Shown here: piece after piece, positions 5,635 to 45,010 of the stretch
How the letters are laid out: each line of letters begins with the position of its first letter
Position numbering within the stretch: the first letter of the stretch is position 1
Origin: Candidatus Gottesmanbacteria bacterium
GTDB lineage: Bacteria > Patescibacteriota > Microgenomatia > UBA10105 > UBA927
Assembly (NCBI GenBank): GCA_963714095.1
Contig: OY970230.1
Coordinates: forward strand, 198,206-262,205
Direction of reading: 5' to 3'
DNA length: 64,000 nucleotides
The notes under the pieces: generated by a model
What the model saw: the letters and a program-made list of their open reading frames with translations, nothing else
Database searches by the model: none
What the model was told of the DNA's origin: nothing
Translations under genes and position numbers: made by a program

Positions 5635-5646
5635 ACGTTGAACCCC

Positions 5647-8271: not shown

Positions 8272-8782
8272 AAATAACTTCTATCTGCTCGGACAACACA
8301 TCAAAATGATCAAGAATTTCTTTTTTCGTACTTTCCGAAACGGCAATTATTTTTTCGCTCCAGAAAATTGCTTTTAACAGAGAAATATAATATCCCAGGC
8401 GGCGGATTTTGTAGAAAACATACGACAGCGTCGTTGCTTTTCCTGTGTCAAAATGCAAAATCGTCAGGTCGTGGATGGTCACGATACATTTTCCGAAATA
8501 GAAAAGCGGGACATTAAAATAGGGAACATGCAAAAGATCGAGATGCTCACTGTTAAAAATCGCCGGCATGAACAGCTGTTCAGTGACACTATGCCATGGA
8601 ATGTCCGCTAACCGTTTCGTCCATCTGGCATTAGGCAATGCAAACGAATCAAACGCAGATTTCCGTAAAAAAACCACGTAGGAATTTTTATCATCAATCT
8701 TCCCCAATTCTGCAATAAGATTGCGGACATATCGTCCGACGCCGGTCTCGTTTACAAGACGTGCATCTATGCCTATCTTCAT
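8261..8782 (-). CDS. GT4 N-terminal (acceptor) domain only; half of a split GT4
   Basis: MKIGIDARLVNETGVGRYVRNL N-domain signature. Ends ...EQIEVIYEG immediately after the N-domain terminal motif. 173 aa. Confidence 0.6.
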   Translation of the reverse strand: MKIGIDARLVNETGVGRYVRNLIAELGKIDDKNSYVVFLRKSAFDSFALPNARWTKRLADIPWHSVTEQLFMPAIFNSEHLDLLHVPYFNVPLFYFGKCIVTIHDLTILHFDTGKATTLSYVFYKIRRLGYYISLLKAIFWSEKIIAVSESTKKEILDHFDVLSEQIEVIYEG

Positions 8783-18326: not shown

Positions 18327-19940
18327 TCATTTTTCAGGTAAATAATACAAAAACTCCTGTGCTTTTGCCCGTTGCTGTTGTGTTAACCCTGATACTAAAG
18401 ACTTTTTTATATAGAGACATGTAGGTTTTCCTTCCGAATACCACTGTGCATAGAAAGGTAAAAATTGGGACGGAAAACGCGGATGAACCGGTGCGTCCGG
18501 AGTGCAAAAATCATACAGGATATCCGGCGGATCATGGGTAAACATATCGATCATGGCGTTATAATATTTATCTTTAAATCGGATCGGGTAGTAAAACGAA
18601 TATGAATAAGAAGAACTCCTGCCTGATGCGACATACAAAAACTCATCCGCTCCGTTGGTAAAAAGCGTTTGCTGAGGCACAGTTACTGCTTTAATAACTT
18701 CACTTATCTGCAAATAATTCCCGTAATTGGTGATAAACTCCGTCTGCTCGTCAACGTGCTGGTAGATGAAAGATCGCGGAGAAAATAACACGTAGGCAAC
18801 TAAGCACCCTATGATAATAAAAAATATGTATCGTTTACGGACTACCCAAAGCATTTCATAAAAAAGATACAACGACGAAAACAGGAAAATACCATACCAG
18901 TTTATTTCGTGAAACGCTTCAAAATATTGCAAACCCGGAATTGCAGGCCGGAGATTTGCCAAACCCAAAACAATAAAAAGGAATCCCAATACCCACATGT
19001 TTTTCTTTGTTTTCAGCCACAGAAAAACAGAAAAACCAAAAACGACAGTCAAACATATCAATTGAATACGAAAATCATTCCACCTTCCGGCAATAAGAAT
19101 ATAGAGGGGGTAAAAAAATGACTTAACGACGCCGGTACCGAAAAAATGACCCGCTTGCAGCTCGCTGGGTAATCCTGTCTGTAAATTCAGGGTAATAACA
19201 TTATAAACAAAATCACGGACAGGAAACAATATGAATAATCCCGCGGTTAAAATAAAAAATATAGCGAGGGCGATTTTACCGACATTTTTGAAAAACACAG
19301 GGCGGATAATAATGCCAAAAAGAAATATCGCTACCAACACGTACGGTTCTCGCATAAACACAACAAACCATAGACACAGGGCTGTTAAAACGATCTCCCA
19401 ATGGAACACAGGTTTCTTGCGGAGCGTATGCAATCCCAAACCGGTTAGGTACACGAGGGGATATACGATAAAACCTTCAGCCAGAAACCTATCACCAAAA
19501 ACATAAAATTTTGAAAATTCATATAAGAGTGTATATGCAAATCCGGTTATTCCGAACCTCCAACAGATAAAAACGTCAAAAACAAATCCAAACACTAATA
19601 AAAACTGCCGGTGTTGCAATAACAATGCATATATATTAACCGGATGCCCATAGTGCTGAATAACCAAACTAAGATATGCCATAAGCGGCATGTGGTTAAA
19701 GTAAATTTGTGAATACAGTTGCTTGCCCTTCCCAATAAAATATCCGCCAACATAGTTAAAACAGTCATCGAAACAACCAAACGCATTAATTTTCGGAATA
19801 TAGATCTTATAAAGAAAATAATACACAGGGATAAGAAGAATAAACCAGATCGTCAGGCGTACTAACGGATGTGATAAAACGGCGTTCCATGCAAAAGCAT
19901 TATTCTTTTTTTGCATAAGGATCAGGGGAATAACCATCAC
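18327..19940 (-). CDS. polytopic membrane protein, GT-C-like (hypothetical)
   Basis: About 12 hydrophobic helices. Early loop CFDDCFNY acidic motif. The 5' end overlaps galE, so the true start may be an internal Met. Confidence 0.35.
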   Translation of the reverse strand: MMVIPLILMQKKNNAFAWNAVLSHPLVRLTIWFILLIPVYYFLYKIYIPKINAFGCFDDCFNYVGGYFIGKGKQLYSQIYFNHMPLMAYLSLVIQHYGHPVNIYALLLQHRQFLLVFGFVFDVFICWRFGITGFAYTLLYEFSKFYVFGDRFLAEGFIVYPLVYLTGLGLHTLRKKPVFHWEIVLTALCLWFVVFMREPYVLVAIFLFGIIIRPVFFKNVGKIALAIFFILTAGLFILFPVRDFVYNVITLNLQTGLPSELQAGHFFGTGVVKSFFYPLYILIAGRWNDFRIQLICLTVVFGFSVFLWLKTKKNMWVLGFLFIVLGLANLRPAIPGLQYFEAFHEINWYGIFLFSSLYLFYEMLWVVRKRYIFFIIIGCLVAYVLFSPRSFIYQHVDEQTEFITNYGNYLQISEVIKAVTVPQQTLFTNGADEFLYVASGRSSSYSYSFYYPIRFKDKYYNAMIDMFTHDPPDILYDFCTPDAPVHPRFPSQFLPFYAQWYSEGKPTCLYIKKSLVSGLTQQQRAKAQEFLYYLPEK

Positions 19941-20910
19941 GATGATTTTTATGCCATTTCCAGGCAGATGAAACGATAGTTTCTATATCTGAGTATTTTG
20001 GCCGCCAGCCGAATTCTTTCTTAAAATGTGTGGAGTCTGCAACGAGACTGTGCGGATCACCCGCCCGCCGCGGTGCCTCCCGCACGGCAAAATCTACCCC
20101 GGTCACCTTTTTAACCTCCGCGACAACTTCCTTATTTGTCATCCCATCCCCTGTTGCGAGGTTATATACGTCGGTTTTATGACCATGAGTTAATGCGTCC
20201 AGCGCCAATAAATGCGCCTCCGCAAGGTCCTCAATATGAATGTAGTCCCGCAGACACGACCCGTCGCGCGTCGGATAATCAGTTCCATACAGCAAAAATT
20301 CTTTCTGCTTTCCCATAGCCACACGGATCGCAACCGGAATAATATGTGTTTCAGGGAGATGATCTTCGCCGTTATCACCGCCCAGCGCTGCACCGCATGC
20401 ATTAAAATACCGGAGACTGATACTTCTTATATGATGCTGATAATCCGTCACGCGTAATAGCTCCTCGAAACACCATTTCGACAGCCCGTACGGGCTCGTG
20501 GGATTTTTTGCATGACTCTCCGGTATCGGAATAATTGTCGGATTTCCGTAGACGGCGGCAGTGGAAGAAAAAATAATTGTATCAACCCCATGCTCCTGCA
20601 TCACAGCGAGGAGTGTCATGGGCGCAATAATATTATTTTTCATGTATTTAATAGGATCCCGGACGGATTCTTCCACCATGAGGTATCCGGCAAAATGGAT
20701 GACTGCTTCAATCGAATATTTTGAAAAAATCGGCTCGAGCGTTGCTTTATCTTTAATATTACCCACGATAAGAGGCACCGTGGCCGGTAACGCCTGCCTG
20801 TGGCCGTATTCGAGGGAATCCACGACGATCGGGTGGTAGCCCCGCGCAACAAGCATCCGCACCATATTGCTTCCGATATAGCCGGCGCCTCCGGTAACAA
20901 GCACGTTCAT
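19900..20910 (-). CDS. galE: UDP-glucose 4-epimerase
   Basis: MNVLVTGGAGYIGSNMVRML Rossmann motif and YGLSKWCFE catalytic YxxxK. Length 336 aa, typical of GalE. Confidence 0.8.
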   Translation of the reverse strand: MNVLVTGGAGYIGSNMVRMLVARGYHPIVVDSLEYGHRQALPATVPLIVGNIKDKATLEPIFSKYSIEAVIHFAGYLMVEESVRDPIKYMKNNIIAPMTLLAVMQEHGVDTIIFSSTAAVYGNPTIIPIPESHAKNPTSPYGLSKWCFEELLRVTDYQHHIRSISLRYFNACGAALGGDNGEDHLPETHIIPVAIRVAMGKQKEFLLYGTDYPTRDGSCLRDYIHIEDLAEAHLLALDALTHGHKTDVYNLATGDGMTNKEVVAEVKKVTGVDFAVREAPRRAGDPHSLVADSTHFKKEFGWRPKYSDIETIVSSAWKWHKNHRDGYSPDPYAKKE

Positions 20911-20914
20911 TCCT

Positions 20915-21136
20915 CTATTTTACTTTATTGGGCCGCAGGAGGGAAATCAGAAGGAAAGAGAGCGTGAACGCAGCACCATACCAAGTCAGACGCTCGGCGG
21001 TAAAAAAAGTCCACGTAGCAAATAACGGAATCGCCAAAACCCAGCTTGCGAGGCCGGCAAACAGAAATAACCGGGGCTTTCTAATTAAAAGTAATACGAC
21101 AAATACCAGAAAAAATCCTATATCCTGCGGCTTCAT
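20915..21136 (-). CDS. small two-helix membrane protein (hypothetical)
   Basis: 73 aa, two hydrophobic segments. 4-nt coupling overlap with the downstream UXS gene. No recognisable motif. Confidence 0.3.
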   Translation of the reverse strand: MKPQDIGFFLVFVVLLLIRKPRLFLFAGLASWVLAIPLFATWTFFTAERLTWYGAAFTLSFLLISLLRPNKVK

Positions 21137-22077
21137 TGTTTGTAATATGCAATCGTTTTATGTAACCCATCTTCGACGGTCACCTTTGGCGTCCATTGTA
21201 AACGGGTTTTTATCTTTGTTATATCCGGCTTACGCTGGGTCGGATCATCCTCCGGCAATGCTTCAAAAGTAATGGGGGACGCCGATCCTGTCAGCACCTT
21301 AATTTTTTGAGCAAGATCTTTAACCGTGTACTCTTCCGGATTTCCCAGATTAAATACTTCACCTTTGAGGTTGTCGGCGAGCATAACCGCCAGAATTCCG
21401 GATACGAGATCCGAAACGTAACAAAATGACCGGGTCTGTGAACCGCTCCCAAATACCGTCAACGGTTTTTCTTCAAGGGCCTGGTTAATAAAATTTGAAA
21501 CCACACGACCATCATCTTTGCGCATCCTCGGGCCGTAGGTGTTGAATATGCGGATAATACGGGCATCAAGGCCGTATTTCCGAACATAAACCATTGTGAT
21601 TGCCTCTGCAAACCGCTTGGATTCATCGTAACATGCGCGGACTCCGTTAGGATTCACGTTCCCCCAATACAATTCTGTCTGCGGATGCTCCTTTGGATCC
21701 CCGTATACTTCCGATGTGGATGCCTCTAAATATCGTGATGTATGATCCCGCGCAAACTGCAACATATGAATGGTCCCAACTGAGTTGACCAACGCAATTT
21801 CCTCGGAGAGTTTTTTAAAATCCATCGGCGAAGCCGGAGACGCAAGGTTAAAGACGTAATCAATGTGTCCTAGAATATCGGGAGCTGACTCGATAATATC
21901 GTGGCGCAAAAACGAGAAATTTGAGTTTTGTTTCGCCGATTCAATATTTTTTTCAGATCCTGTCAGAAGATTATCTATGCACAATACTTTGTGCCCGAGT
22001 CCCAGTAACGCATCACAAAGGTGCGATCCGATAAATCCTGCCCCGCCGCTAACTACGCTGGTTTTTTGATCTGTCAT
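21133..22077 (-). CDS. UDP-glucuronate decarboxylase (UDP-xylose synthase)
   Basis: Strong UXS family pattern: SGGAGFIGSHLCDALLGLGHKVLCIDNLLTGSEKNI, ASTSEVYGDP, RACYDESKR, RIFNTYGPRM and DGRVVSNFINQAL. Start trimmed to MTDQKTS. Confidence 0.85.
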   Translation of the reverse strand: MTDQKTSVVSGGAGFIGSHLCDALLGLGHKVLCIDNLLTGSEKNIESAKQNSNFSFLRHDIIESAPDILGHIDYVFNLASPASPMDFKKLSEEIALVNSVGTIHMLQFARDHTSRYLEASTSEVYGDPKEHPQTELYWGNVNPNGVRACYDESKRFAEAITMVYVRKYGLDARIIRIFNTYGPRMRKDDGRVVSNFINQALEEKPLTVFGSGSQTRSFCYVSDLVSGILAVMLADNLKGEVFNLGNPEEYTVKDLAQKIKVLTGSASPITFEALPEDDPTQRKPDITKIKTRLQWTPKVTVEDGLHKTIAYYKQ

Positions 22078-22081
22078 GCAT

Positions 22082-22792
22082 CTATTGTAGCATACGGATA
22101 CGGATGGCTCCTGCAAGCGACCGCAGGAGTTCTTTCACGTTTGCATTGGAAGCTCCATGTGTTCTGTCCCGGAAACTTATGGGGACTTCCGTTATTCGAA
22201 AACTGTTCTGCTTCAGTTTATATGCTATTTCCGACAGTACGATAAACCCGGTTTCATGAAGGTGCACGCGCACCAAAAATTCCGCTGCTTTTCGGGAGTA
22301 TAATCGGAAACCGTTGGTATAATCCGTTAAGTGCAACCCAAGCCATATGCTTAACAAGGCGTTAATTACTCTGCTTTGAATAAGTCGACGCCACGGCCAT
22401 TTTACAATATGGCTCTGTTTAAGATACCGCGAACCGATAACCAAATCTGCCCCGCGGCGTACGGCTAAAAACCGTCCGAACTCTGCCGGTGAATGCGCTA
22501 GATCTGCATCCATCTCAAAACAATATTGTATTTCCTTATGTTTGAGGGCTTCAGCTAATCCCCGAATGACGGCACTCCCTCTGCCCATTTTGTGCTCGCG
22601 GGAAATAAGAACCACGTTGGGAAAATCCCTTTGAAGCATTCCTGACAGTTGTATTACTTCGTTGGCAGGAGAGTCATCAACAACCACGATCAGAGCATCC
22701 GGGAGGTATTTTTCTATATCTTTTAATAAAATACTTAAATTTTTTTGTTCGTTATACGCCGGAATAATGACTGAAATACCTTGATTATTCAT
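22082..22792 (-). CDS. GT2 polyprenol-phosphate glycosyltransferase (DPM1/Ppm1/ArnC-like)
   Basis: ISVIIPAYNEQKNLSILL ... VVVDDSPANEV ... EMDADLAHSP pattern of dolichyl/polyprenyl-phosphate sugar synthases. 236 aa. Confidence 0.7.
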   Translation of the reverse strand: MNNQGISVIIPAYNEQKNLSILLKDIEKYLPDALIVVVDDSPANEVIQLSGMLQRDFPNVVLISREHKMGRGSAVIRGLAEALKHKEIQYCFEMDADLAHSPAEFGRFLAVRRGADLVIGSRYLKQSHIVKWPWRRLIQSRVINALLSIWLGLHLTDYTNGFRLYSRKAAEFLVRVHLHETGFIVLSEIAYKLKQNSFRITEVPISFRDRTHGASNANVKELLRSLAGAIRIRMLQ

Positions 22793-22813: not shown

Positions 22814-25096
22814 CTAATTTTTTTCAAATATTGCTATTTGTGCGTTATCGAATATCTTTGTCAGGTGTAACGACGTAATTTCATAATCGGAAATATCAGA
22901 GCCCAGATATCTGGGGATAACAATAAGTTTACTGTCGTAATCTGATATCTTAAGAACGTTATCTTCCGGTCTCATAACCATTTCCCACTTTTTGCCGGTT
23001 ATCGTTTGTCCTATACGGTAGTCAGTATATACAATCGGTTTTACTGCTTTATATATCGGCAGTATCGAATTATCTACCTGCTCTACATACAACACGCTCT
23101 TTTTTTGATTTTTAATAATTTGCAGCGCATGTATTTCATACGTTGTAAGGGCATACTTGCTCCTTGAATAAACAACAGTTACTGCAAGAGACAACAGAAT
23201 GAGGGGAGGGATAATACTGCATAACACTAACATATTCCTCGTTTTGTACTTCCGGAATATAACGATAGCAATCGTAACCAGCACAATTGCAAGAACAGCG
23301 AGGGATGCAAATACAGCCCCGTATGTTGTTTTATCGAGAGGAAAATACGGAACATGCATATACAGAAATACCATCAGCGCATAATAGGCCCAATACAGAT
23401 ATTTCTTTACCTTTCCTGAAGGTCTAACGATGAATACATAATGAAGGACAAACAGGATAAAAAACGGCAGAACTTTACTGACGTACACGGTGGTTAAAAC
23501 GGGAAAAAGATGTAAAGAAAAAAGAATGATAAGTGGTATTGTCTCTTTTTTGTCAAAAAGAAAGGTTACATTTTGTACTAAAAACGGAAACGCAATAAGG
23601 AGCGGAAGGAGTAATAATAAAAACTCATTCACTGATGTCCGGATATTTTTTCTGATGCAACAGATGACGGCGAAATAGAGAATGTAGAGGACACAGAGAA
23701 TCTGAAATGGGCTCATTCCCGGTTTTTCCTGATCAAACGAGAAACTTTTTCCGCCGCGACTCTCAGGGTACACCTGTACTCCCGTCGGAGTAAAATATGC
23801 AACTTTATCGTTTCCTGCATACAGCTCTACATCGTTTCCTTTTTCCTTCGTCGTAAGCTGGTCGCTCGTTTTTCTGATGAAAATACCCTGATCGGGAAAG
23901 GTCATTGAATCAATAATTTCCTGCTCATTTATTCTTAAGGTTGGCTGACTGTTCGGAAGGATATCGAAATCCTCCGGAATCTTATCTGCGTAATTCCTTA
24001 GATCAACGAAAGAAACAACGCCGTTTATTTTCTGCACCGTCGCCCGGTAGTTTTCCGACATATACCAGAATGACTGATTGTTTGAGTCGTAATCCGTTGA
24101 GAGAAAATGGGTTCTGCCTGCAAATACTTTCTTCTGCGCCAAAAACCGCTGGGCGTACTCCTGTGCCGGCACTATATCTACTTTGCCGGATGCCTGTATT
24201 TCCCTGGCTTTGGTGAGCATCGTTTTATACGATTGCTGAAATGTTTCGAGTGTTTCTCCGTTCTCCAGTCCCATCACGAAATTGCCGAATGGTTTCTGCA
24301 AAAAAATCGAGGCAAGGTAGTCGACGTACTCCGGTGTATATCCTCTCGCCGAATAATCCTGCAGACTATACAAAGGATCTGCATACCCTTTAAGGGGATC
24401 CCGTATCGCCCACTGCAGAATTACCACCTTTGTGCTTTCGGCAAACGATGCTGCCGGTATTCCCTCATTCCCTTTTGAAGGAAGATACGGAATATCCCAC
24501 GGAGTCCCCCAAATGGAATACGTATCCAAATTAAATTGGTCTGCCGCCCTCAGAGCTGCGGTGATCCCGTATTTTTCCTGCATATAAGAAAGCGAGTCTC
24601 CGCCGATCCACCAGGCGCCGACTGTCTTGGGATAATATCCGAAAATTTCCTTAAATTTAAAAAAGGCCGCGTCTATCAACTTTCGTCTTTCGCTCTGATC
24701 ATAGGAGCTTAATAATAATCCGTCGGAAAAGTACCATTCCCCCTGTCCCCGAAACTGAACGTTGGATTTCTGGGCATAATTCCTGTCAATCTCAAACAGC
24801 AATCCGAATTCCTGGCCCTTCATTTCCTGTTTGGCAAATTCGGTCATGTCTTTATTCTCCAAAGCTCCATATTGAAACAGCCACGTCGCATAAACACCGA
24901 CCTCACTCGTAACCTGCCACTGAGCTTTCAGGCTGGCAAGCAAATCATCAGACGCGTGTCCGAGTCCGTTCCCCCGGACAAGATTGATGACGGTAATTGC
25001 GGGACGTGAGGCACTATCCTGAGCTTCGGAATGACACGGGAAGCAGAAAAAGAAAACAATGATTAAAAAAGTAAACAGAACAATTCTTTTTATCAC
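22814..25096 (-). CDS. membrane protein: signal peptide, large extracytoplasmic domain, C-terminal multi-TM domain (hypothetical)
   Basis: N-term LFTFLIIVFFFCFPCHSEAQD signal-like segment. About 450 aa soluble region. Then about 9 hydrophobic helices in the last 280 aa. Confidence 0.4.
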   Translation of the reverse strand: MIKRIVLFTFLIIVFFFCFPCHSEAQDSASRPAITVINLVRGNGLGHASDDLLASLKAQWQVTSEVGVYATWLFQYGALENKDMTEFAKQEMKGQEFGLLFEIDRNYAQKSNVQFRGQGEWYFSDGLLLSSYDQSERRKLIDAAFFKFKEIFGYYPKTVGAWWIGGDSLSYMQEKYGITAALRAADQFNLDTYSIWGTPWDIPYLPSKGNEGIPAASFAESTKVVILQWAIRDPLKGYADPLYSLQDYSARGYTPEYVDYLASIFLQKPFGNFVMGLENGETLETFQQSYKTMLTKAREIQASGKVDIVPAQEYAQRFLAQKKVFAGRTHFLSTDYDSNNQSFWYMSENYRATVQKINGVVSFVDLRNYADKIPEDFDILPNSQPTLRINEQEIIDSMTFPDQGIFIRKTSDQLTTKEKGNDVELYAGNDKVAYFTPTGVQVYPESRGGKSFSFDQEKPGMSPFQILCVLYILYFAVICCIRKNIRTSVNEFLLLLLPLLIAFPFLVQNVTFLFDKKETIPLIILFSLHLFPVLTTVYVSKVLPFFILFVLHYVFIVRPSGKVKKYLYWAYYALMVFLYMHVPYFPLDKTTYGAVFASLAVLAIVLVTIAIVIFRKYKTRNMLVLCSIIPPLILLSLAVTVVYSRSKYALTTYEIHALQIIKNQKKSVLYVEQVDNSILPIYKAVKPIVYTDYRIGQTITGKKWEMVMRPEDNVLKISDYDSKLIVIPRYLGSDISDYEITSLHLTKIFDNAQIAIFEKN

Positions 25097-25120: not shown

Positions 25121-26980
25121 TTATTTCGCATCTATACGAAGTATCAGGTATTTCGTGTCTTCATAGACTGTTTCGTATGTTGCGGTAAGCAATTTTTCGT
25201 CAACGGCATACGGAAAATCGTTTTTCTTCCATCTCGGAATAAGGATATATGAGATATTACTTGCTTTGGCAGCCGAGATATCACCCTGGTACACCCTAGA
25301 AACAACAGGCGACCGGTCTACCCAGCCGACATTCCCGTAAAAACCGAAATAATTGGTCCTCCCTGCTAAAACTACCGGGTCTATGATGTCCGAATATGAC
25401 ACAAAAATCGCGTCTCGTTGTGTGTTTTTTTTAATCCAGGAAATAACCGCGGCTGTATCCTTATCTACCAGCGGATACGCGAACTCATTCTTTACGACCA
25501 TAAGGTCGATAGCACCTGATACCGTAAGGGTAAATAAAAGAGCGAGTGCAAGCAGTCTAAATCCGACTCTTTTCCGCCGCAAAAGCCAAACAATTCCGCA
25601 TGCGGCACTGATATTGACACCGATGATGAGAACTGACAGAAATTTCTGGTCAAATCCATGCTTCCCGTACGCCGCATACAGGCATAGAGCAGCAAAAAAC
25701 AGAAAGAACGGAGCGATGACACCTCTTCGTTGTTTAGGAATTACGAAAAAACCCGCAACTGCAACGAACGGCAATATGCCGAGATTTTCCCACAAATACT
25801 GAAAAATGTTCCATTGCGGTAACCGGCCCGTTCCCTGTAATGATAACCCCAGTGACCATACGCTTTTCCATACGGAAACAAACGGCAAAACTGACATCAC
25901 AACCGTTCCTAGTGCGCACACGGAAAACGTAACCGACTCACGCCATCGTCTCCTCAAAAGCATAAGAAGAACAATGATTGCTCCGACAAGTGCACTGACA
26001 GGTATGTTCCAAAAAAACATACCGCCGGTTAATACACCCAATACGGCGCCGTTGAAATTCGTTAACCGTTTATCATCGGACAGCTTGAGGAGACACATAA
26101 TCAGGAAAAGCCCGAGCGCAATACTAAAAGCCAGATGCCGCTGATTCACATAATTATTGAGCGTCATAAAAACGGAAATAACGGATCCGTCATACGGTCC
26201 GGCAAACGGGTACGCGGGAAGTCTCCAGGTGGTATGAAAAAATGCAAAGTTAAAACCTTTTTGGGGTATGAAATACCAAAACGTCAGCGTACTGTGCGTA
26301 ATTGTCAACAATACCGCAACCCATCCGGCGAGTTTCGTTTGTTTCAGAAATACTTGCGGCAAAAAATAAACAATTATGAGAAGTGACGCAAATGAAACTA
26401 TGCTGGGAATATTCATAGCCCATACGATCGGAACACCGAAATATTCCCAGAGAGCGACGAAAAAATAGAAAAGGAAATGATAAAAAAATGGCAGTCCAGA
26501 CTGAAACGGAGACATAAACGGAATATTATTTCCCCATGAAAATGACCGCACGATCCCGAGTGAATGCCCGAAATCAAACACGTTATTACTTCCGACAAAT
26601 AATGTTCCGCCTGTTCCTGCACGAAACGTTTTCATCATCAGCCACGAACTGAAAAGAACTGAAAAAAGGACGATAAGTACGTCACCAAATGTCAGGACAG
26701 ACGTTGAATTCGATTTTTTTATTTTCACAAAACGGCTTAAGATGAATACTACTGCGATAAAGAGAACCGTGCTCCAAAGAATCGATTCTCCGGTTTGCCT
26801 CAGTAAACTTGCCAATATATAGGTTGTCGGTACTCCGATACCGATGCCGACTATCATGGAACCGACAAACGCAAGCAATACAGGCATTCCGGAAAACCAT
26901 TTTTTTACGACGATCGAACCCAAAAACGTTAATGAAATAATGTAGAGAGCAAGAATGAGCAAATGGATACCCTGTTGCAT
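25121..26980 (-). CDS. polytopic membrane protein with C-terminal soluble domain (GT-C-like candidate)
   Basis: About 14 hydrophobic helices followed by an ~130-aa hydrophilic C-terminus. Confidence 0.35.
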   Translation of the reverse strand: MQQGIHLLILALYIISLTFLGSIVVKKWFSGMPVLLAFVGSMIVGIGIGVPTTYILASLLRQTGESILWSTVLFIAVVFILSRFVKIKKSNSTSVLTFGDVLIVLFSVLFSSWLMMKTFRAGTGGTLFVGSNNVFDFGHSLGIVRSFSWGNNIPFMSPFQSGLPFFYHFLFYFFVALWEYFGVPIVWAMNIPSIVSFASLLIIVYFLPQVFLKQTKLAGWVAVLLTITHSTLTFWYFIPQKGFNFAFFHTTWRLPAYPFAGPYDGSVISVFMTLNNYVNQRHLAFSIALGLFLIMCLLKLSDDKRLTNFNGAVLGVLTGGMFFWNIPVSALVGAIIVLLMLLRRRWRESVTFSVCALGTVVMSVLPFVSVWKSVWSLGLSLQGTGRLPQWNIFQYLWENLGILPFVAVAGFFVIPKQRRGVIAPFFLFFAALCLYAAYGKHGFDQKFLSVLIIGVNISAACGIVWLLRRKRVGFRLLALALLFTLTVSGAIDLMVVKNEFAYPLVDKDTAAVISWIKKNTQRDAIFVSYSDIIDPVVLAGRTNYFGFYGNVGWVDRSPVVSRVYQGDISAAKASNISYILIPRWKKNDFPYAVDEKLLTATYETVYEDTKYLILRIDAK

Positions 26981-26983
26981 ATG

Positions 26984-28726
26984 TTATTTCCGGCGTTTCA
27001 GTATAAGTATTACTGCTGAACTGACGAGCGTAATACTACTGATTCCGACACCTATATTTGCCAGTATTTGTTGTCTGGCGACGATCGGAGGAATTGTACT
27101 AATCATAGTAAACTGAGTATTTTTAAAAACCGCTACACCGGTAAAATCAGTGTCCTCAATAAGTGTCGTATTTTTAAGAGCATCTATTAGGAGGCTGCGT
27201 TCGTCGGGATTAAAACGGTAATCCGTAAGGAAAAACTGCTTCGTGAGATCAGTCGGCACGATCACATATCCGACTCCTGAATCTGCCAGACTCTTCATAA
27301 ATTCAGGCGTTTTAATCATGGCGATAACGGCAGATATTGAAGCGCCATTAAACAGTTCATTGGATGTCAGCAATGGGTGAACCTCTGACGTATATGCAAA
27401 CGGGTCGTTTTGAGGTATCCATAACGTGCGCGATGGTTTTGCATCCCCGACCAGTACATCTTTCAGGCGGACGTAATCGGCGGAAATTCGCGGTGGCAGG
27501 AAATTGCCCCGCATTTGGCCTAAAAAAACCGGCCGGATGGTAAAACACCAATACAACAGAAAGATGGTCCATATAAGTATTTCATTTATATGAATTTTTT
27601 CCGTGAGCCGCTGAAGTGTATACGGGATTAAAACGGAATATCCAAGAGCAGTAAAAACATATACTTTCGTGGGATCGCGGAACATGACAAATCCGGGTAT
27701 ATGGATAAACATCCACTGAAAAATTTCTCCGAACGGATCATTGACGCCTTTTGCAAGAAACACACCCAGAAGCGCGAGCACACCGAAAAAAAATATTTTT
27801 CTTGACCGATCCGCGGCTTTTTTTTCAACGAACAAAAACGCGCAAAATGCCAGGAGAGGCAAAATGAGAAATTCCGGCTGCAGGAAATAGACTTTTCCGA
27901 ATAAATTTTCCGGCCAATTCGGATGAAGAAGTGAAAGCGCATGGGAAAAATCCGCAGAGCTTAAAAATTTGAGCATGCCGGGACTCGTAAATTGATCTCC
28001 GAGTGATTGTATCCCACCTCCGCCAAACACCGTCGGCAAAATCCAAAAAGCGTGCGAACAAAGTCCGATGATGCCGGGGACAATAAACGTCGAAATAATT
28101 ATCGTGCCGATATATTTACTTCCGTACAGATACCAATGGAGAAAAAAATATAAACCTATAGCGATAACTGCAAGATATGCCAATCGTATATCGAGTACTA
28201 TTAACAACGCAAAATATAAACCGTTTCCAATAGACGTTCGTATATTCTGTTGTACGGGGGTATCAATACCCTCCGTAAACTTCAGAAACACCAAGGGCAG
28301 AAATGCAAATGCCCAGGCAACACCCAACTGACCTCCGCTGAAAAGAAGGAGAAAATATGTATTTGTGGTATAAATTACGGAACCCAACACGGCAAACAAG
28401 GGTCTATTAACACATCTTCTGACCAGCCGATATGATGAATACACTGCCAGAACAAAAGCGATGATCCAAAATAGTTTGTCTATGAAAAACCATGAAAATC
28501 CGAGCAGTGATAGTATTTTCAACACGAAACGGTACGGATATTCAAGCCACAAACGGGGCAACAGACTTTGCCCGAAACCTTTTGTCGTATCCCAAACGGG
28601 CGGCAACCATGAAAACTGCCGGATTTGTTCTTCAAACAAAAACGGCGCATCACCGGAAGCAAAAAATATCATACGCGATGAATCCTTTGTTGATCTTTTC
28701 GCACTGTCAGAATAATAGCAACGCAA
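26984..28726 (-). CDS. polytopic membrane protein, paralog of 28669..31629
   Basis: Shares the motif HIPGFVMFRDPTKVYVFTAL with HVPGFAIFRSSFYKFAPLV in the next protein. Multi-TM. Confidence 0.4.
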   Translation of the reverse strand: MRCYYSDSAKRSTKDSSRMIFFASGDAPFLFEEQIRQFSWLPPVWDTTKGFGQSLLPRLWLEYPYRFVLKILSLLGFSWFFIDKLFWIIAFVLAVYSSYRLVRRCVNRPLFAVLGSVIYTTNTYFLLLFSGGQLGVAWAFAFLPLVFLKFTEGIDTPVQQNIRTSIGNGLYFALLIVLDIRLAYLAVIAIGLYFFLHWYLYGSKYIGTIIISTFIVPGIIGLCSHAFWILPTVFGGGGIQSLGDQFTSPGMLKFLSSADFSHALSLLHPNWPENLFGKVYFLQPEFLILPLLAFCAFLFVEKKAADRSRKIFFFGVLALLGVFLAKGVNDPFGEIFQWMFIHIPGFVMFRDPTKVYVFTALGYSVLIPYTLQRLTEKIHINEILIWTIFLLYWCFTIRPVFLGQMRGNFLPPRISADYVRLKDVLVGDAKPSRTLWIPQNDPFAYTSEVHPLLTSNELFNGASISAVIAMIKTPEFMKSLADSGVGYVIVPTDLTKQFFLTDYRFNPDERSLLIDALKNTTLIEDTDFTGVAVFKNTQFTMISTIPPIVARQQILANIGVGISSITLVSSAVILILKRRK

Positions 28727-31629
28727 ACGAAACCCGCAATGGTTATCACGGCCCCGATATAAAATATGCTCTGCGGTTGATAATAGATGGTTGCATCATA
28801 TGTTCCCTTTGTATCTATAATCCAACCGTTGGCAAAACCGTTTGTCAGGACATGCCGGCTTTCCTGTAAGGTCTCCCCGTTGATTTTTATCTTCCACCGC
28901 GCGTCGAAGCCGGCGTTGTAGAGTAACAAAAATGCTTTTTGGGCATTATTGATGTGCACTGTGACATTTGTAGGATTCTTTTGAATAAATGTAACAGCCG
29001 GCGAAGAGATGTTTATGGATTCATGATTCCGGTGGGCATAAACGGCGGGTTGCTGCCTGGGAACATTATCGGCCGCAGCAGTAAGTTCAACTGTGTGAAA
29101 GCCTGCGGTCAAATAGACATTTTTTGGATTGGTAACTAATGATCCGTCTAATTTGAGAGTCTGGGAGGAGACATCATAAACGAGCAGCTGGTAATTGGCA
29201 TCAGTATCCACGGTCAACCCATACCGGTATTCCTGTTGTCCGTCTCCCATCCAAACCAAAGGTTGTACGCGGACAATCATTGTCTGGAAATACGACTCAA
29301 ATTCCGGATCCTTCCCTAATTCTCTTTGCTGGGCCAGAAAATAAGCCAAAATACGGTTTGCATAGACCGTTTTATCGCGTCCGGAAAGATTGTCCATAAT
29401 CTTCACAGCATCGTTCATCGCCAATTCGTACCGCGCTTGTGCCGATTGTAACCGGGCAATATTATTTTCCGTGCGGAATTCCATATACTCTCCCAGTCTG
29501 GTCTGTGCGTGGGCAATAAGTACGTCGATCTTTGCAGAGCCGGTCTTCGCGTTATTATTTTCACGCTCTTCTTTCCATGTTATGTATGGATATGCCACGG
29601 AACCGGGGAGTATGCGCGGCCGGAGTATCGTGATTCCTGATACATATTTATTCCATTCTGCCGTTTTGCAAAAATAACATTCACCACCGTACACAATAGA
29701 TGTAGCCAGGGAAGTAGCCGGACCCGCTCCCGTTCCATCCCCGATTTCGACGACCGGCACCGCAGGTTCAACTCCTACGATATCCGAACCGCTCGCGGAT
29801 AAATCCCCCTGAAAATCTGTCACCGCACCTGCGGCTTGGACAATCGGAGGTGCGGATCCCGGCAAATCCCATAACTGCCACTCCCCTTTGTCAAACGTTT
29901 TCGTTAAACCGAAAGCGGTAGCAATAGGCACAAAATCAGGGGCAGGTTGAGGCTTGGAAAACTGAACATCGCGCCGGACCAAAATAGAACGGACTCGAAG
30001 TATGGATGCCAGATTGAAAAATGAACGCCTATCATGACTATCCAGTGCCTCATACATACGGTTCACCAGCTCGCCACCTGTACCGGTGGCGTCATTGGCA
30101 ATAATCGGAACGGTCGAGATTAATCTCGGAAGCACGTCGAGACTGTAAAACCCCCACCGATACGTATCAATCGGCTGATTAATAAACCCCGCGTCAAGCG
30201 GCGGATAGATGAGGATATTCCCTGAATACGGGTCTGCGCTATTCATAACTTTTGCCGTGTCTGTTACATAAGGCGGAACCGAGACGCGCGTGGTAAAATC
30301 TTTGGAGAATTGAAATATGTCCGATACAAAAAACGGATAGTGATACACGAATAAACCCGTAATGAAACCCGCGGCAATAAGAGCCTGCACCAGTCTTCCT
30401 TTTATGGATTGCAGAACGGAGTTCAGCATAAAACCGGAAAGAATAATCATCGGAATCCACACTAACGGCGCAAATTTATAAAAGCTTGAACGGAAAATTG
30501 CAAATCCCGGCACGTGACGCATCGCCCAAATAAATGCCACACCGAACGGGGGATGCGATCCAGCGGCCAGTACCAACCCTATGAGCAAAAGTATGTAGAG
30601 ACATACAAGGAACCAGATCTGACGGATATTTTTTCTTTTCCATAACAGGAATATTGAACCGACAAAAACGATAATTGCAGGAATAAAACTTGCAATAATC
30701 AAAAGATGGTTGGTAAGAAATTGATGCGCAAACGGATTATAGACATTGTCATACCAATCGGGGATTCCCTGTAAACGCAGAAGATTTATAATGCTCGCAT
30801 TTTTGCTGATCACACCTTCCCATGCAATGAGCCCCTCAATTCCCCCATAAGCTCCTACCGTCTGACTGTATGTTCCGAGATATAGACTGAGCTGCGGTAA
30901 AACCCAATAGGCATTGACAGTCAAAAACGAAACGGACATGCCGCACGCGATGAAACATAACCGCTTCAGCACCCCCCGTCCGTCTTTGCGGATTGCAATG
31001 ATAGAAAAAATAATAAATGAACATACCAGCCCGACAAGCGTTGCCCCATACAACGGCGGAGACCCTCCCCCGTTCAGAATAAAATAGAGAAGCCCGAAGG
31101 CAATTGCATGCCTGACAATATTCTTCTTACGGATAATTGTCCGGTACAGAAGAGCAACTGCTATAGGGAGCGCGGCAAACAGTGAAAATTCTGCCCGCTC
31201 CGCAATAAACCACCCCTGTAAAATATAAAAATTGTACATCGCAAATGCCGATGACCACAGACGTAAAAATCTGTATTGCTTCTGCGGAAATACGAGATAT
31301 ATACCTAGCCACATGCCGAAACCGATAAGAAAAAACCACAATACGAGAGCGATTCGTTGACCCCAAAGGATCGATCCTGTAAGTACTGAAAATAGCGTTT
31401 CCGGAAACTGCGTCACAAGAAATGCCTTGTATAACGCCCAATCTATCCCGAAGTTCACAATCGGATTCCACGAATAAAACAAATTTTTTAGATTTACCAC
31501 TGGCATCAGCCGGAATCCACTATCATGCCCGAGAAGCATCTGACTACCACTCAACCAATGAAGAGGTAAAAGAGATGTAATGAATATAAACAGGAGTTCA
31601 ATAAAATATGCACGTCGAATATATTTCAT
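28669..31629 (-). CDS. very large polytopic membrane protein with extracytoplasmic C-terminal domain (GT-C-like candidate)
   Basis: 986 aa. N-terminal ~450 aa multi-TM with early GHDSGF acidic loop. Large hydrophilic middle/C region. Final TM near the C-terminus. Confidence 0.4.
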   Translation of the reverse strand: MKYIRRAYFIELLFIFITSLLPLHWLSGSQMLLGHDSGFRLMPVVNLKNLFYSWNPIVNFGIDWALYKAFLVTQFPETLFSVLTGSILWGQRIALVLWFFLIGFGMWLGIYLVFPQKQYRFLRLWSSAFAMYNFYILQGWFIAERAEFSLFAALPIAVALLYRTIIRKKNIVRHAIAFGLLYFILNGGGSPPLYGATLVGLVCSFIIFSIIAIRKDGRGVLKRLCFIACGMSVSFLTVNAYWVLPQLSLYLGTYSQTVGAYGGIEGLIAWEGVISKNASIINLLRLQGIPDWYDNVYNPFAHQFLTNHLLIIASFIPAIIVFVGSIFLLWKRKNIRQIWFLVCLYILLLIGLVLAAGSHPPFGVAFIWAMRHVPGFAIFRSSFYKFAPLVWIPMIILSGFMLNSVLQSIKGRLVQALIAAGFITGLFVYHYPFFVSDIFQFSKDFTTRVSVPPYVTDTAKVMNSADPYSGNILIYPPLDAGFINQPIDTYRWGFYSLDVLPRLISTVPIIANDATGTGGELVNRMYEALDSHDRRSFFNLASILRVRSILVRRDVQFSKPQPAPDFVPIATAFGLTKTFDKGEWQLWDLPGSAPPIVQAAGAVTDFQGDLSASGSDIVGVEPAVPVVEIGDGTGAGPATSLATSIVYGGECYFCKTAEWNKYVSGITILRPRILPGSVAYPYITWKEERENNNAKTGSAKIDVLIAHAQTRLGEYMEFRTENNIARLQSAQARYELAMNDAVKIMDNLSGRDKTVYANRILAYFLAQQRELGKDPEFESYFQTMIVRVQPLVWMGDGQQEYRYGLTVDTDANYQLLVYDVSSQTLKLDGSLVTNPKNVYLTAGFHTVELTAAADNVPRQQPAVYAHRNHESINISSPAVTFIQKNPTNVTVHINNAQKAFLLLYNAGFDARWKIKINGETLQESRHVLTNGFANGWIIDTKGTYDATIYYQPQSIFYIGAVITIAGFVCVAIILTVRKDQQRIHRV

Positions 31630-33356
31630 ATCTTTTCTCGTTTCTTAAAAATTTCAATAGTTGATCCATCGATGGGAACGAAAACGTCACGAAAACGATC
31701 GTATCCCAACGATTCTATCACTGTGGCATTAACGCCCCCAGGTACTTTATCCAACACATAATCGGCCTGATGTAACTCCAACTTTTTGGGCAATACGGCA
31801 TCTTTCGGCACTTCTGTGTCCATAACCATTATATCTCGCTGCTCGTACGTCAGAATGGACAGGAACGCATTATCAAGCGGCTCAAAGGCAAACAGCTTAA
31901 CAACGTCTGGCTTTCCGGGCCCTTTCCAATCATTACGAATTGTTGACACCATCACATCCGCATTAACAAATTCTTTATTCGGCGGCCACACTATGGGCGT
32001 CAGATATATACGGCGCGGATGATGAATAAATTCCGGGAGAACAATATCCTTTAAACCCTGTTTCCCCATCGGACCAATTGCCCAAAACGCACCGAAATAA
32101 CTGCAAACGGCAACCACCACGAAACAAACCGTGAAAAATCTTCTGACCGCCGAATGTTGGATGCCCGCAAGGGGTAATACGGCCAAAAAAGCCATATAGG
32201 GATACAAAGGCACGATGAACCGGTCTTCCTTCCACACCGCCATACCAGTAAAAAACAGATACGGCACCGCGACACCCAGAAGGGGCACCCCATATCGTTT
32301 CCATTTCCATAGTGCAATAAGCACACCGACCGCAAACGGAATAAAAATCCAAACCGTATTCTGGGACATAATGTTGAAATAATACATGACGGATCTTGTT
32401 GATAACGTATTTGCCATATCGGGGCTGCGGTATTGTGCCACCCACTCTGCTCCGTACGTCTGGTTGTTCTTAACGTATACGTCAAAAAAAATGTGGGCGT
32501 TGGGAATGTAATATGCAAAAATCGGTACAACTACTCCGATAATCAAAAATAAGACAATGTTAACGATAATGTTCTTTCTGACTTTCTTTTCCCTCACAGC
32601 CTGCCCGACAGACATAATAAATACCGCCAGCGCCGGCCCCAACACAAATACCGGTCCAACCCAACGCGTCAGTGATGCCAGTGCCAGAAAAACTGCCGCA
32701 ACGAGAGTTTCTTTTGTTTTTACGAAACTATTTGTTTTGAGAAGAAATACGACCGACCATATACAGAACGTGCTCACCGCTGTTTCCGTATATGTAAAAT
32801 GTGAATAAAACAATACGTTTCCTAAACTTGCAAATACTATTGCGACAAGAAGTGATTTTTTTTGAGTAAAATACGTTCTGGCTATTACATACGTCCCGAT
32901 AATCGCCGCAAGGTAAAAAAGTCCGTTCAGAAGCAATGCCATCTTGTACGTATACGCTGTTCCGAAAATCAGTAATAATAGTGCTATAACAATACTGAAT
33001 ACCGGCTGCCGGTATCCGCTCGCCGCAAGAATACTCCCCCACGAAACTGACAATGGATGACGGAATTGATCATACAAATTCACTGCCAGAGAAAGATATT
33101 GATGTTCGTCCCATTGGGGATATTGATGAGATCTATAGATATAAAAAGCAAATGAAAGATAAACAAAAACAAGAAGACTTATACTTATCAGACTAAAAAG
33201 TTTATGGTGCGATTGAAGCTGACCCTTGTTGTTTTTTTGTAGCTCTCTTTCATAAAATAACCTCATATTGTTTCGTTGGTTCGTATGCAATACTATGTAC
33301 CTATTATATCCTGACTTTACCGAAAATCTTGATAATAAATAATAACACAGTTGCAA
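31626..33356 (-). CDS. GT-C fold membrane glycosyltransferase, GT39/ArnT-like
   Basis: Early loop WDEHQYLSLAVNLYD. FYSHFTYTETAVSTFCIW resembles the PMT/ArnT signature region. Multi-TM N-half and soluble C-half. Confidence 0.45.
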   Translation of the reverse strand: MQLCYYLLSRFSVKSGYNRYIVLHTNQRNNMRLFYERELQKNNKGQLQSHHKLFSLISISLLVFVYLSFAFYIYRSHQYPQWDEHQYLSLAVNLYDQFRHPLSVSWGSILAASGYRQPVFSIVIALLLLIFGTAYTYKMALLLNGLFYLAAIIGTYVIARTYFTQKKSLLVAIVFASLGNVLFYSHFTYTETAVSTFCIWSVVFLLKTNSFVKTKETLVAAVFLALASLTRWVGPVFVLGPALAVFIMSVGQAVREKKVRKNIIVNIVLFLIIGVVVPIFAYYIPNAHIFFDVYVKNNQTYGAEWVAQYRSPDMANTLSTRSVMYYFNIMSQNTVWIFIPFAVGVLIALWKWKRYGVPLLGVAVPYLFFTGMAVWKEDRFIVPLYPYMAFLAVLPLAGIQHSAVRRFFTVCFVVVAVCSYFGAFWAIGPMGKQGLKDIVLPEFIHHPRRIYLTPIVWPPNKEFVNADVMVSTIRNDWKGPGKPDVVKLFAFEPLDNAFLSILTYEQRDIMVMDTEVPKDAVLPKKLELHQADYVLDKVPGGVNATVIESLGYDRFRDVFVPIDGSTIEIFKKREKI

Positions 33357-33381: not shown

Positions 33382-34593
33382 ATGAACCGACAACCCTCTC
33401 CCCATTATGCATTTTTAGACGGCCTCAAAGGAATTGCTATTGTCATGATTGTCGCGTTTCACCTACAATTTATATATTCAGGATTTTCCGATTATTTAAG
33501 CAAGCTCCTAGCGTTTAGCGGTGTATGGGTAAATATGTTTTTCGTAATTTCCGCGTTTACCCTCACGGCGAGCGTCTATAATCAGCGTTTATTTAATTTT
33601 TTCCGGTATTTCTATAAACGTTTTCTTCGGATAACACCAGCATATTACGTAATGCTTGTTATTGCGTTTATCGTTATGCCAACTATGGTCAGAACATTTC
33701 TGTGGGGAAATAATATCCAGAATCTATTTCAACACATTCTCTTCATTAACACAGCCCCGTTTAATCATACCAATCAAGTTTCAATTCTGGGAGTGGAATG
33801 GTATATACCGGTACAATTTTGGCTCTATCTTGTCATACCATTTATCGTAATCACCCTTAGGGGAAATGGTATTATATTTTCGGCGCTTTTATTGGTATCG
33901 TTGTTTCTTCATTCAGATAAAAACGCACTCTTCCATTATCAGAATTTTTTTGATTTCGCCTCAAGTATACAGAACTTTCTCTGGGTCTATGTATTTGCTA
34001 TCGGTGCTCAAATGGTGCGTATGAATAAAAAAATTCATCTGTCGTTCTCATCCATTATCACAGGACTGGGAATTCTGGCAGGCTCTGTTTATTTTATTCT
34101 CACTATCCAAACTAAAAGTGAACGGTTCTATATAACTGCATTGATCGTCATGTTATATCAGATCCTCTTGAAAACACGCATTATCCGCCGCGTATCAACA
34201 ACCCATTCCTCGTTGGTACCGATACTCGAACATATTGACGTTCTTATATTATTTATTTTGTTTTATAAATATATCCTGAATTGGTACTTTGTAAAAAACC
34301 CTCATGAATTTATGGCATTCTGGTCAATTGCGCTGGTTATTGCGTCATATGCCCGCCCATGGTTCCTCCAGAAGTTATTGGAAAATCGTGCTGTTGTACT
34401 GCTGGGGAAATATAGTTATGAGATCTATCTCACGCATTTTTTCGTTATTACGGCGGTAGGTTATATTATTCCAAAACAAGGGCCATACATCCGCACGCTC
34501 TACATTCTTCCCATCATCGCCATTCTCTCGTATCTTTTACGCCAATTTGTTTCCAAACCTGCGCTGGATTTATATCCACTCAAAAATCAATAA
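33382..34593 (+). CDS. acyltransferase family 3 (OafA-like membrane O-acyltransferase)
   Basis: FLDGLKGIAIVMIVAFHL start motif and about 10 TM helices, typical of AT3 family. On the + strand, divergent from the upstream block. Confidence 0.75.
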   Translation: MNRQPSPHYAFLDGLKGIAIVMIVAFHLQFIYSGFSDYLSKLLAFSGVWVNMFFVISAFTLTASVYNQRLFNFFRYFYKRFLRITPAYYVMLVIAFIVMPTMVRTFLWGNNIQNLFQHILFINTAPFNHTNQVSILGVEWYIPVQFWLYLVIPFIVITLRGNGIIFSALLLVSLFLHSDKNALFHYQNFFDFASSIQNFLWVYVFAIGAQMVRMNKKIHLSFSSIITGLGILAGSVYFILTIQTKSERFYITALIVMLYQILLKTRIIRRVSTTHSSLVPILEHIDVLILFILFYKYILNWYFVKNPHEFMAFWSIALVIASYARPWFLQKLLENRAVVLLGKYSYEIYLTHFFVITAVGYIIPKQGPYIRTLYILPIIAILSYLLRQFVSKPALDLYPLKNQ

Positions 34594-44500: not shown

Positions 44501-45010
44501 ATGAATCGTTCAGGTATTACTTTTGTCTTATTATTCATTCTATTACTGTCCCTTTGCACAACCGTACATGCCACGTCATGCCAAACGATACCAATGGAGC
44601 AAAAAATGTATCTTAAAATTATGGATCTTCGTGATAGGGCAATGATCTTTTTTCTCATGGACCCGCTCAAGAAAATTTCATATAGGCAAAAACGGGCGGA
44701 TGAACTCTATCAACAGGCTTCCCAAACTACCAATCCCTCGCTCACATATGCGGAAGCACTTCGGGCGGAAGATTCAATAACGCAACTTGTGAGTGATATT
44801 CGGTCATTACCAAATACCGAAAAAGTTGATATCGTTAGTTTAGAACAGTCAATGCGGCAGCATCAGCAAATTATTTCTTCAATGAAAACTAATTGTGATT
44901 GGAGCCTGATTAACCAGTTTATTCAAAAAAACAGATTTATTGCAAGACAACTCTATTTTGAACGATTACCGACTGATAAAAACCAGCAGTTATTTAAGGA
45001 AATCCGATAA
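44501..45010 (+). CDS. small secreted protein (hypothetical)
   Basis: Signal peptide FVLLFILLLSLCTTVHATS, then a hydrophilic, probably helical 145-aa domain. Plus-strand island between minus-strand genes. Confidence 0.4.
   Translation: MNRSGITFVLLFILLLSLCTTVHATSCQTIPMEQKMYLKIMDLRDRAMIFFLMDPLKKISYRQKRADELYQQASQTTNPSLTYAEALRAEDSITQLVSDIRSLPNTEKVDIVSLEQSMRQHQQIISSMKTNCDWSLINQFIQKNRFIARQLYFERLPTDKNQQLFKEIR

Follow-up and report, generated by a model that had tools for sequence, protein, structure and literature searches.

A tandem pair of predicted GT-C membrane proteins related to AftD and MmpA in a probable surface-glycan locus of Candidatus Gottesmanbacteria

Two adjacent genes at positions 26984-31629 of a 64,000-nucleotide (nt) stretch of the Candidatus Gottesmanbacteria contig OY970230.1 (the whole stretch is hereafter called the window) encode large polytopic membrane proteins that share a distinctive sequence motif. 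We refer to the long paralogue, of 986 amino acids (aa), as B and to the short one, of 562 aa, as A. We consider it probable that A and B are ancient paralogues from the AftD/MmpA branch of the GT-C proteins and belong to a surface-glycan operon of an uncultured bacterium with a small genome, of the Microgenomates/CPR (candidate phyla radiation) type, in which B would be an active transferase and A either a second transferase or a partner of B. Conservation was counted in alignments of 85 B-family and 86 A-family sequences, while Pfam and MmpA models were scanned against 47 B relatives and 86 A relatives. The features of the pair are as follows:

28669..31629, minus strand: gene B, predicted 986-aa AftD-like GT-C membrane glycosyltransferase
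30340..31629, minus strand: B residues 1-430, GT-C transmembrane (TM) domain (model secondary structure, hydropathy, conservation over the 85 sequences)
31522..31524, minus strand: codon of B D36 in the first extracytoplasmic loop (Asp in 85/85; MAFFT alignment with AftD)
30490..30516, minus strand: shared motif in B, H372-VPGFAIF-R380, followed by the invariant K385 (motif search, conservation)
28780..30339, minus strand: B residues 431-950, extracytoplasmic region (AlphaFold2 (AF2) secondary structure, Pfam, profiles, Foldseek)
28675..28779, minus strand: B residues 951-985, single C-terminal TM helix and positively charged cytoplasmic tail (AF2, hydropathy)
28669..28672, minus strand: ATGA junction, the stop of B overlapping the start of A (read from the sequence)
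26984..28672, minus strand: gene A, 562-aa MmpA-like short paralogue
28649..28651, minus strand: codon of A D8, counterpart of the loop Asp that follows TM1 in B (Asp in 84/86; aligned with B D36)
27677..27703, minus strand: shared motif in A, H324-IPGFVMF-R332, followed by the invariant D333 and K336 (motif search, conservation)

A preliminary description of the window had placed the two open reading frames (ORFs) at 26984..28726 and 28669..31629. These coordinates hold, and both frames lie on the minus strand, which had been left unstated. The overlap of 58 nt that was reported with them is an artefact of reading A as its longest ORF, a frame of 580 aa with a TTG start at 28726. The start of A is the ATG at 28672, which overlaps the TGA of B as ATGA (...CGC GTA TGA TAT TTT...) and is preceded by AAGGA. 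The public gene call for A (P0121) begins at the same ATG and comprises 562 aa, and the N-termini of homologues match it, 82 of the 86 A-family sequences starting at most 12 residues before a conserved Asp. The overlap is thus one of 4 nt, which is also found in the related loci L003, L004, L005 and L011 and suggests translational coupling of B and A. A fusion of B and A by read-through or frameshifting was considered as well and rejected, because the conserved loop of A would then end up on the cytoplasmic side.

Translated in all six frames, the window contains the motif H[IV]PGF[AV][IM]FR at two places only, once in A and once in B, and both copies are embedded in an extended collinear alignment. 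BLASTP aligns A with B at 28% identity over 147 residues that end in the motif (E=3e-9), and the hidden Markov model (HMM) of either family detects the window protein of the other (E=1.9e-9 and 2.7e-6). An hhalign comparison of the two families yields a probability of 99.1% and E=1.2e-18 over 417 collinear columns, spanning residues 56-480 of A and 81-557 of B, with an identity of about 20% between the families. In the merged alignment about 25 positions outside the motif are conserved in both families. They include A D8/B D36, the PNW at 251-253 of A and the PDW at 290-292 of B, A Y338/B Y384, A D475/B D554 and a GxxxxxGxxxPxG stretch ahead of the motif; within the motif PGF..FR is shared, and R380 of B, together with the following K385, is invariant in 85/85 B-family sequences. 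The collinearity confirms that the motif noticed in the preliminary description is part of a much longer relationship, and these sequence comparisons support the view that A and B are paralogues which arose by duplication and divergence.

AF2 models were obtained from the family alignments with a pLDDT of 93.4 for both proteins and a pTM of 0.92 for A and 0.90 for B. AftD is the best Foldseek match of A (E=9.3e-7, TM-score 0.57), and mycobacterial AftD is likewise the top solved structure for B (E=1.4e-11). The next structural matches of both are STT3, AftA, Pmt, PglB, AglB and ArnT, all of them GT-C proteins. The polytopic N-terminal domain has the GT-C helix arrangement, and the acidic residue that is conserved in the first extracytoplasmic loop is found at the mutually aligned positions D36 of B (85/85) and D8 of A (84/86).

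The same relationship is visible in the family models. Pfam PF11847 (GT-C_AftD, formerly DUF3367) is matched at E<=0.01 by 20 of the 47 B relatives (best 7.6e-11) and by 7 of the 86 A relatives (best 7.5e-9), while the NCBIfam MmpA model NF053599 is matched by all 86 A relatives (best E=9.6e-19) and by 13 of the 47 B relatives. The A family profile aligns to residues 58-244 of the AftD sequence with E=0.012. Precomputed Pfam matches exist for some relatives, and databases therefore already register the AftD link. The likeness to arabinofuranosyltransferase-like GT-C enzymes that had been proposed from the letters alone is thus upheld by the relatives and by the structural matches, although A and B themselves miss the Pfam model; DUF2079, the other family suggested at that time, gave no match. 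PDB sequence searches with A or B singly returned nothing useful, and a profile built from the PF11847-positive B relatives alone did not reach AftD.

B begins with TM1 (residues 6-25), and so has the TM helix that precedes the loop in GT-C proteins, the N-terminus lying in the cytoplasm. It continues with the first extracytoplasmic loop, about ten more TM helices, some 520 residues of soluble sequence and one C-terminal TM helix. The first extracytoplasmic loop contains the invariant H35-D36, R40 and E77, and the long loop 239-308 the invariant W270-E271, R285 and D291-W292. Across the 85 B sequences D36, E271, R380, K385 and D488 are all invariant.

According to the AF2 model, the extracytoplasmic region of B is predicted to comprise an alpha/beta GT-C periplasmic domain (about 440-650), a four-helix bundle (680-791) and a beta-sandwich (800-950). 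The bundle has a weak Pfam match to DUF5667 (E=1.5e-4). The profile of the C-terminal beta-sandwich is collinear over residues 853-980 with AftD 1151-1275 at a marginal E=0.66, and Foldseek matches of the region to CBM35 and to the C-terminal domain of AglB are weak and partial. A carbohydrate-binding module (CBM) had been suggested as a possibility here; the model shows one beta-sandwich beside a helical bundle, and the Pfam CBM_AftD and F5/8 models are not matched. The preliminary description had also stated that B adds about 450 soluble residues and a final TM helix; this is roughly right, but A too ends in a TM helix and carries about 150 aa of extracytoplasmic domain. In addition, an extracytoplasmic C651-x-x-C654 pair (29668..29679, minus strand) lies directly before the DUF5667-like bundle; it is invariant in 85/85 sequences and could be a disulfide or a metal site.

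In A, a B-like TM core without TM1 reaches to about residue 383 and is followed by a soluble domain (about 385-528) and a last TM helix (530-561). The protein starts with MIFFASGD, so that the conserved Asp is residue 8, and its first helix begins near residue 38. The TM1 that should lie ahead of the conserved loop is absent, A starting seven residues before the Asp, much as the 82 close homologues mentioned above. Distant A-family members keep a hydrophobic TM1 before '[GH]DW' (6 of the 22 A-bearing loci, and 87 of 138 full-length top representatives), and the loss of TM1 in the clade of the window is therefore derived. Two short, positively charged loops (81-91 and 283-292) and the KRRK tail at the C-terminus fall on the cytoplasmic side, a distribution that fits an exported N-tail.

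The A family has a set of invariant residues of its own, namely D241, N252, E267, R332, D333, K336 and H432, with D8, H244 and H250 (84/86 each) and E255 being near-invariant. At other positions it has lost what is fixed in B: the invariant E144 of B is Gln in 86/86 A sequences, E271 is replaced by Leu (83/86), and the loop with the invariant D488-W492 of B is deleted. The A family is nevertheless the better conserved of the two, with 40-62% identity to the window protein compared to 33-43% for the B family.

For AftD it has been reported that K39, D41, E251, K361 and D474 are each essential (bioRxiv 10.1101/2019.12.22.885152). As an AftD reference we used about 590 residues (about 20-600) stitched from a frameshifted mycobacterial gene in L036. 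This gene (5001..9193) lies on a mycobacterial metagenome contig and contains at least two frameshifts, which represent an assembly error or a pseudogene. In the stitched sequence the Lys of NVHKL is placed exactly +110 from the Glu of FIESSG, the spacing of K361 and E251, while the spacing to D474 is off by 4. A three-way MAFFT alignment of AftD, B and A gave the following equivalences:

AftD D37-K39-D41 segment: B D36, A D8
AftD E251: B E271 (invariant), A L237
AftD W272 (100% conserved): B W292, A W253
AftD R357...K361 (PLR357NVHK361L): B R380...K385, A R332...K336, i.e. the shared motif

In other GT-C enzymes, basic residues bind the phosphate of the donor. Because the shared motif aligns with the AftD segment that holds the essential K361, it is a probable donor-phosphate loop, located at the membrane interface and binding the phosphate of a lipid-linked donor. 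B has a further invariant acidic residue, D488, four residues ahead of a shared WG.

The pair is part of a co-oriented minus-strand run that extends from about 33266 down to at least 19900, with junctions that are either 4-nt overlaps or gaps of a few nt. The order of the genes is PMT_2-like, B, A, 619-aa, 760-aa, GT2, UDP-glucuronate decarboxylase, 73-aa and GalE-type epimerase. Besides A and B, the run encodes:

31626..33266, minus strand: 546-aa PMT_2-like GT-C protein upstream of B (Pfam PMT_2 E=2.2e-5; gene call in L001)
25121..26980, minus strand: 619-aa polytopic protein, about 14 TM-like segments with a soluble domain at the C-terminus (no family match)
22814..25096, minus strand: 760-aa protein combining a signal or TM segment at the N-terminus with a soluble domain (about 440 aa) and about eight TM segments (no family match)
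22082..22792, minus strand: GT2 of the polyprenyl-phosphate glycosyltransferase type (Pfam Glycos_transf_2 E=7.7e-21)
21133..22077, minus strand: UDP-glucuronate decarboxylase (UDP-xylose synthase, UXS; E=1.3e-99 to human UXS1, 4GLL and 2B69)
20915..21136, minus strand: conserved 73-aa small hydrophobic membrane protein between the UXS and epimerase genes
19900..20910, minus strand: GalE-type UDP-sugar 4-epimerase (E=6.4e-99 to UDP-glucose 4-epimerase 8WXK)

The stop of the PMT_2-like gene overlaps the start of B by 4 nt, and a PMT_2-like homologue is present in L003 and L005. The 619-aa gene follows A directly in ten loci of related species (L003-L011 and L020), and the UXS gene is conserved downstream of B, A and the 619-aa gene in L002-L011 and L020, L002 and L004 being one and the same contig. 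The 619-aa protein gave no Pfam or PDB match and an hhalign probability of only 58% against the A family; it carries many invariant residues, for example NQRHL at 279-283. At the position of the 760-aa protein, after A, L033 has a homologous ORF of 1319 aa. The GT2 matches the NCBIfam models AglJ, PpgS and ArnC at 1e-14 to 1e-16, in all cases under their cut-offs. Homologues of the 73-aa protein adjoin the UXS or the GT2 gene in most related loci; the protein matches neither a Pfam family nor a GtrA or SMR model, and may serve the pathway as a small subunit or flippase component.

Almost all genes of the window lie on the minus strand and are related to glycan synthesis. Among them are a 997-aa ORF with a weak match to Wzy_C (O-antigen ligase/polymerase) at 12240..15233 and two PMT_2-like GT-C genes at 10791..12236 and 44994..46997, all on the minus strand. 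Divergent beside the operon is a gene for an AT3-family membrane acyltransferase (33382..34593, plus strand; PF01757 E=5e-28). TmaT, an AT3 protein of Mycobacteriales, has been described in a 1:1 complex with AftD (2026 preprints). No AT3 homologue occurs within 8 kb of B in 33 related loci, and the adjacency in the window is therefore probably coincidental.

To describe the distribution of the pair, one genome per species was scanned, which gave 33 loci with a B homologue. In 22 of these, B is followed by a co-oriented A-family gene. The informative titles among the 33 loci are Woese-, Gottesman-, Levy- and Roizmanbacteria, Microgenomatus and 'Patescibacteria group', and the relatives of A and B all come from metagenome assemblies of the Patescibacteria/Microgenomates type. 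Many contigs of related metagenome-assembled genomes (L003, L007, L009-L014 and others) bear the title 'uncultured Gammaproteobacteria' or 'Pseudomonadales'; their gene content is that of Microgenomates/Patescibacteria and the titles are probably wrong. The order in the closest clade is B, A, 619-aa, UXS, 73-aa and epimerase, and in more distant clades B, A, GT2 and 73-aa. Among 1.8 billion cluster representatives searched, 1331 belong to the A family alone at E<=1e-30. From the size of this family and the recurrence of the pair it follows that the duplication long predates this genome and is ancient.

Several loci have, upstream of B, a third protein of about 720-750 aa with a weak B-family HMM match (59-102 bits), at 6132..8348 in L008, 4154..6415 in L009, 1287..3518 in L011 and 4835..6991 in L033. 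No counterpart of it was found in the window.

Beyond what was observed on fold, paralogy, conservation and synteny, we infer a donor, an acceptor, catalytic roles and possibly a B-A complex for this system. The locus offers a gene for a GT2 of the polyprenyl-phosphate type, and this enzyme would make a polyprenyl-phosphate-sugar donor inside the cell from a UDP-sugar. Because the UXS and epimerase genes are conserved, the sugar may be xylose (from UDP-xylose) or its 4-epimer. The donor would then be moved across the membrane, and B, perhaps also A, would transfer the sugar from it onto a surface glycan at the outer face. The active enzyme is probably B, in which the invariant Asp36 of the first extracytoplasmic loop and Glu271 would act in catalysis, the HxPGF..FR....K motif with R380 and K385 would hold the donor phosphate, and the C-terminal beta-sandwich could bind the acceptor polymer. 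A retains the loop Asp (D8) and the R/K motif; having Leu at the E271 position, no D488 loop and, in this clade, no TM1, it would be either another transferase whose active site has been remodelled or a subunit that partners B.

Some of our results weigh against this interpretation. Neither A nor B matches PF11847, even at E<=0.1, and no Pfam glycosyltransferase model is matched by either at that threshold, the one Pfam match of B being the weak one to DUF5667. Their scores with the MmpA model, 36.9 bits for A and 24.5 bits for B, are far below its curated equivalog cut-off of 210. The essential D474 of AftD, together with E475, lies in an insertion that is absent from A and B. When the family profiles were compared to the stitched AftD with HMMER/hmmsearch and hhalign, only the flanks aligned and the motif region did not; because these methods miss that region, the equivalences of K361 and E251 rest on MAFFT, bounded by collinear anchors. 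The GT2 gene follows A in distant loci and is missing from some related ones. Finally, MmpA has no demonstrated transferase activity (PMC8698533).

How do A and B compare to systems that are already known? AftD (PDB 6W98, 6WBX and 6WBY; PF11847), the best structural match of both, resembles B in its overall plan: the GT-C TM domain comes first, then a large extracytoplasmic part that includes a beta-sandwich, and last a C-terminal membrane anchor. In the MAFFT alignment B has counterparts of AftD D41, E251, W272 and K361, and the last beta-sandwich of the two proteins carries a similar 'GW...NG(W/Y)xxGW' signature. On the other hand, the sequence identity is 10-14% and both proteins stay below the Pfam model. 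AftD has sixteen TM helices, five C-terminal ones of which bind the acyl carrier protein, and three CBMs, whereas B has one C-terminal TM helix, one beta-sandwich and the DUF5667-like four-helix bundle. AftD homologues have been reported in Actinobacteria only (bioRxiv 10.1101/2019.12.22.885152), while A and B come from Patescibacteria. Decaprenyl-phospho-arabinofuranose is unlikely to be the donor here.

MmpA (NCgl2761/Rv0226c) is a short paralogue of the N-terminal domain of AftD in Corynebacterineae, with about 10-11 TM helices, one extracytoplasmic domain and a last TM helix (PMC8698533). A has the same layout of TM core, one soluble domain and last TM helix, except that TM1 is missing in this clade. 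Just as A stands beside B, mmpA and aftD share a conserved locus in Mycobacteriales (2026 preprint). A differs from MmpA in its score under the cut-off given above. The MmpA phenotype, moreover, bears on acetylated trehalose mycolates, and no counterpart of these is known from Patescibacteria.

The locus also resembles the three-component systems GtrA/GtrB/GtrC, ArnC/ArnEF/ArnT and PpgS/Rv3779, as it combines a GT2, a small membrane protein and GT-C transferases, and as the gene content leads us to propose donor synthesis inside the cell and transfer outside. It differs from them by several GT-C genes instead of one, which here belong to the AftD branch, and by a 73-aa protein that matches no GtrA or SMR model. 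Precedents for a B-A complex are the heterodimers EmbA-EmbB and Pmt1-Pmt2, each composed of two diverged GT-C paralogues. The embA and embB genes are adjacent. A and B diverge far more in size and domain content than the members of those pairs. Literature searches on DUF3367, on AftD with Patescibacteria and on GT-C with the CPR returned nothing relevant and, in the library searched, no paper that connects AftD or GT-C enzymes with these bacteria.

Could A be a partner without enzymatic activity rather than a second transferase? We regard it as possible, though tentatively, that A is a degenerate, MmpA-like scaffold which forms a heterodimer with B and aids the delivery or placement of the substrate, an explanation that partly overlaps with our own. 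It is suggested by the Leu (83/86) that A has where E271 is invariant in B and E251 is essential in AftD, by the Gln in place of E144, by the deletion of the D488-W492 loop and by the loss of TM1 in this clade. The ATGA overlap and the fixed order of B and then A suggest coupled expression, and MmpA, the closest named relative of A, is without known catalytic activity (PMC8698533). Against a purely structural role stands the observation that A is more conserved than B, and that its own invariant polar residues, which lie in extracytoplasmic loops, resemble a working site. Furthermore, a 2026 Corynebacterium glutamicum preprint indicates that MmpA may itself be a glycosyltransferase.

A bolder version, which we hold to be rather unlikely, is that the AftD/MmpA pair, hitherto described in Actinobacteria only, is an old two-gene module common to Actinobacteria and CPR Microgenomates, in which A and MmpA, and B and AftD, would be orthologues. 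In the clade of the window A and B would then form an obligate heterodimer with a short subunit that lacks TM1. If this were true, A would be a GT-C protein with its catalytic-loop Asp at residue 8 and an N-tail of roughly 60 residues exported without a signal sequence, and the C-terminal helix of B would perhaps pack in place of the TM1 that A has lost.

That neither protein is a glycosyltransferase, and that both are instead lipid or glycolipid delivery factors, MmpA being termed a 'trehalose lipid delivery protein', or glycan polymerases or ligases, appears improbable to us. MmpA is the sole curated sequence model that A and B themselves match, and a Wzy_C-like gene lies elsewhere in the window. 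Nevertheless, all significant structural neighbours are GT-C transferases, the GT-C loop Asp is kept throughout the B family and in nearly all A sequences, and the adjacent genes provide for nucleotide sugars and for a polyprenyl-phosphate sugar. Trehalose mycolates are not known from Patescibacteria, and a mycolate pathway is not expected in them.

The tandem duplication and divergence that had been proposed for the two genes is supported as far as paralogy is concerned, by BLASTP, hhalign and the HMMs, but not as a recent event. A recent, lineage-specific duplication would agree with two adjacent, co-oriented genes that have a motif in common; we judge it very unlikely, because the family profiles are only about 20% identical, A and B belong to separate large families that are each conserved on their own, and the order of B and then A recurs in genomes of the Woese-, Gottesman-, Levy- and Roizmanbacteria type. 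A coincidental short match, finally, has next to no chance of being the explanation of the motif in view of the 417-column alignment, the conserved positions outside the motif and the common fold.

The pair is real and conserved, and represents a variant of a known enzyme class rather than a new kind of system; none of these findings overturns current understanding. Envelopes of CPR/Patescibacteria are almost uncharacterised, and the locus points to polyprenyl-phosphate-dependent extracytoplasmic glycan assembly with AftD-type enzymes in these bacteria, possibly involving pentoses. For the mycobacterial field, AftD and the enigmatic, essential MmpA gain in A and B distant relatives that are well conserved, and whose invariant sets would mark the loop Asp, the E251-like Glu, W272 and the R...K motif around K361 as ancient positions. 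Mycobacteriales are not alone in having a short MmpA-like paralogue travel with a long AftD-like one, and A, which lacks TM1, offers a natural test of how much the conserved GT-C module can do without.

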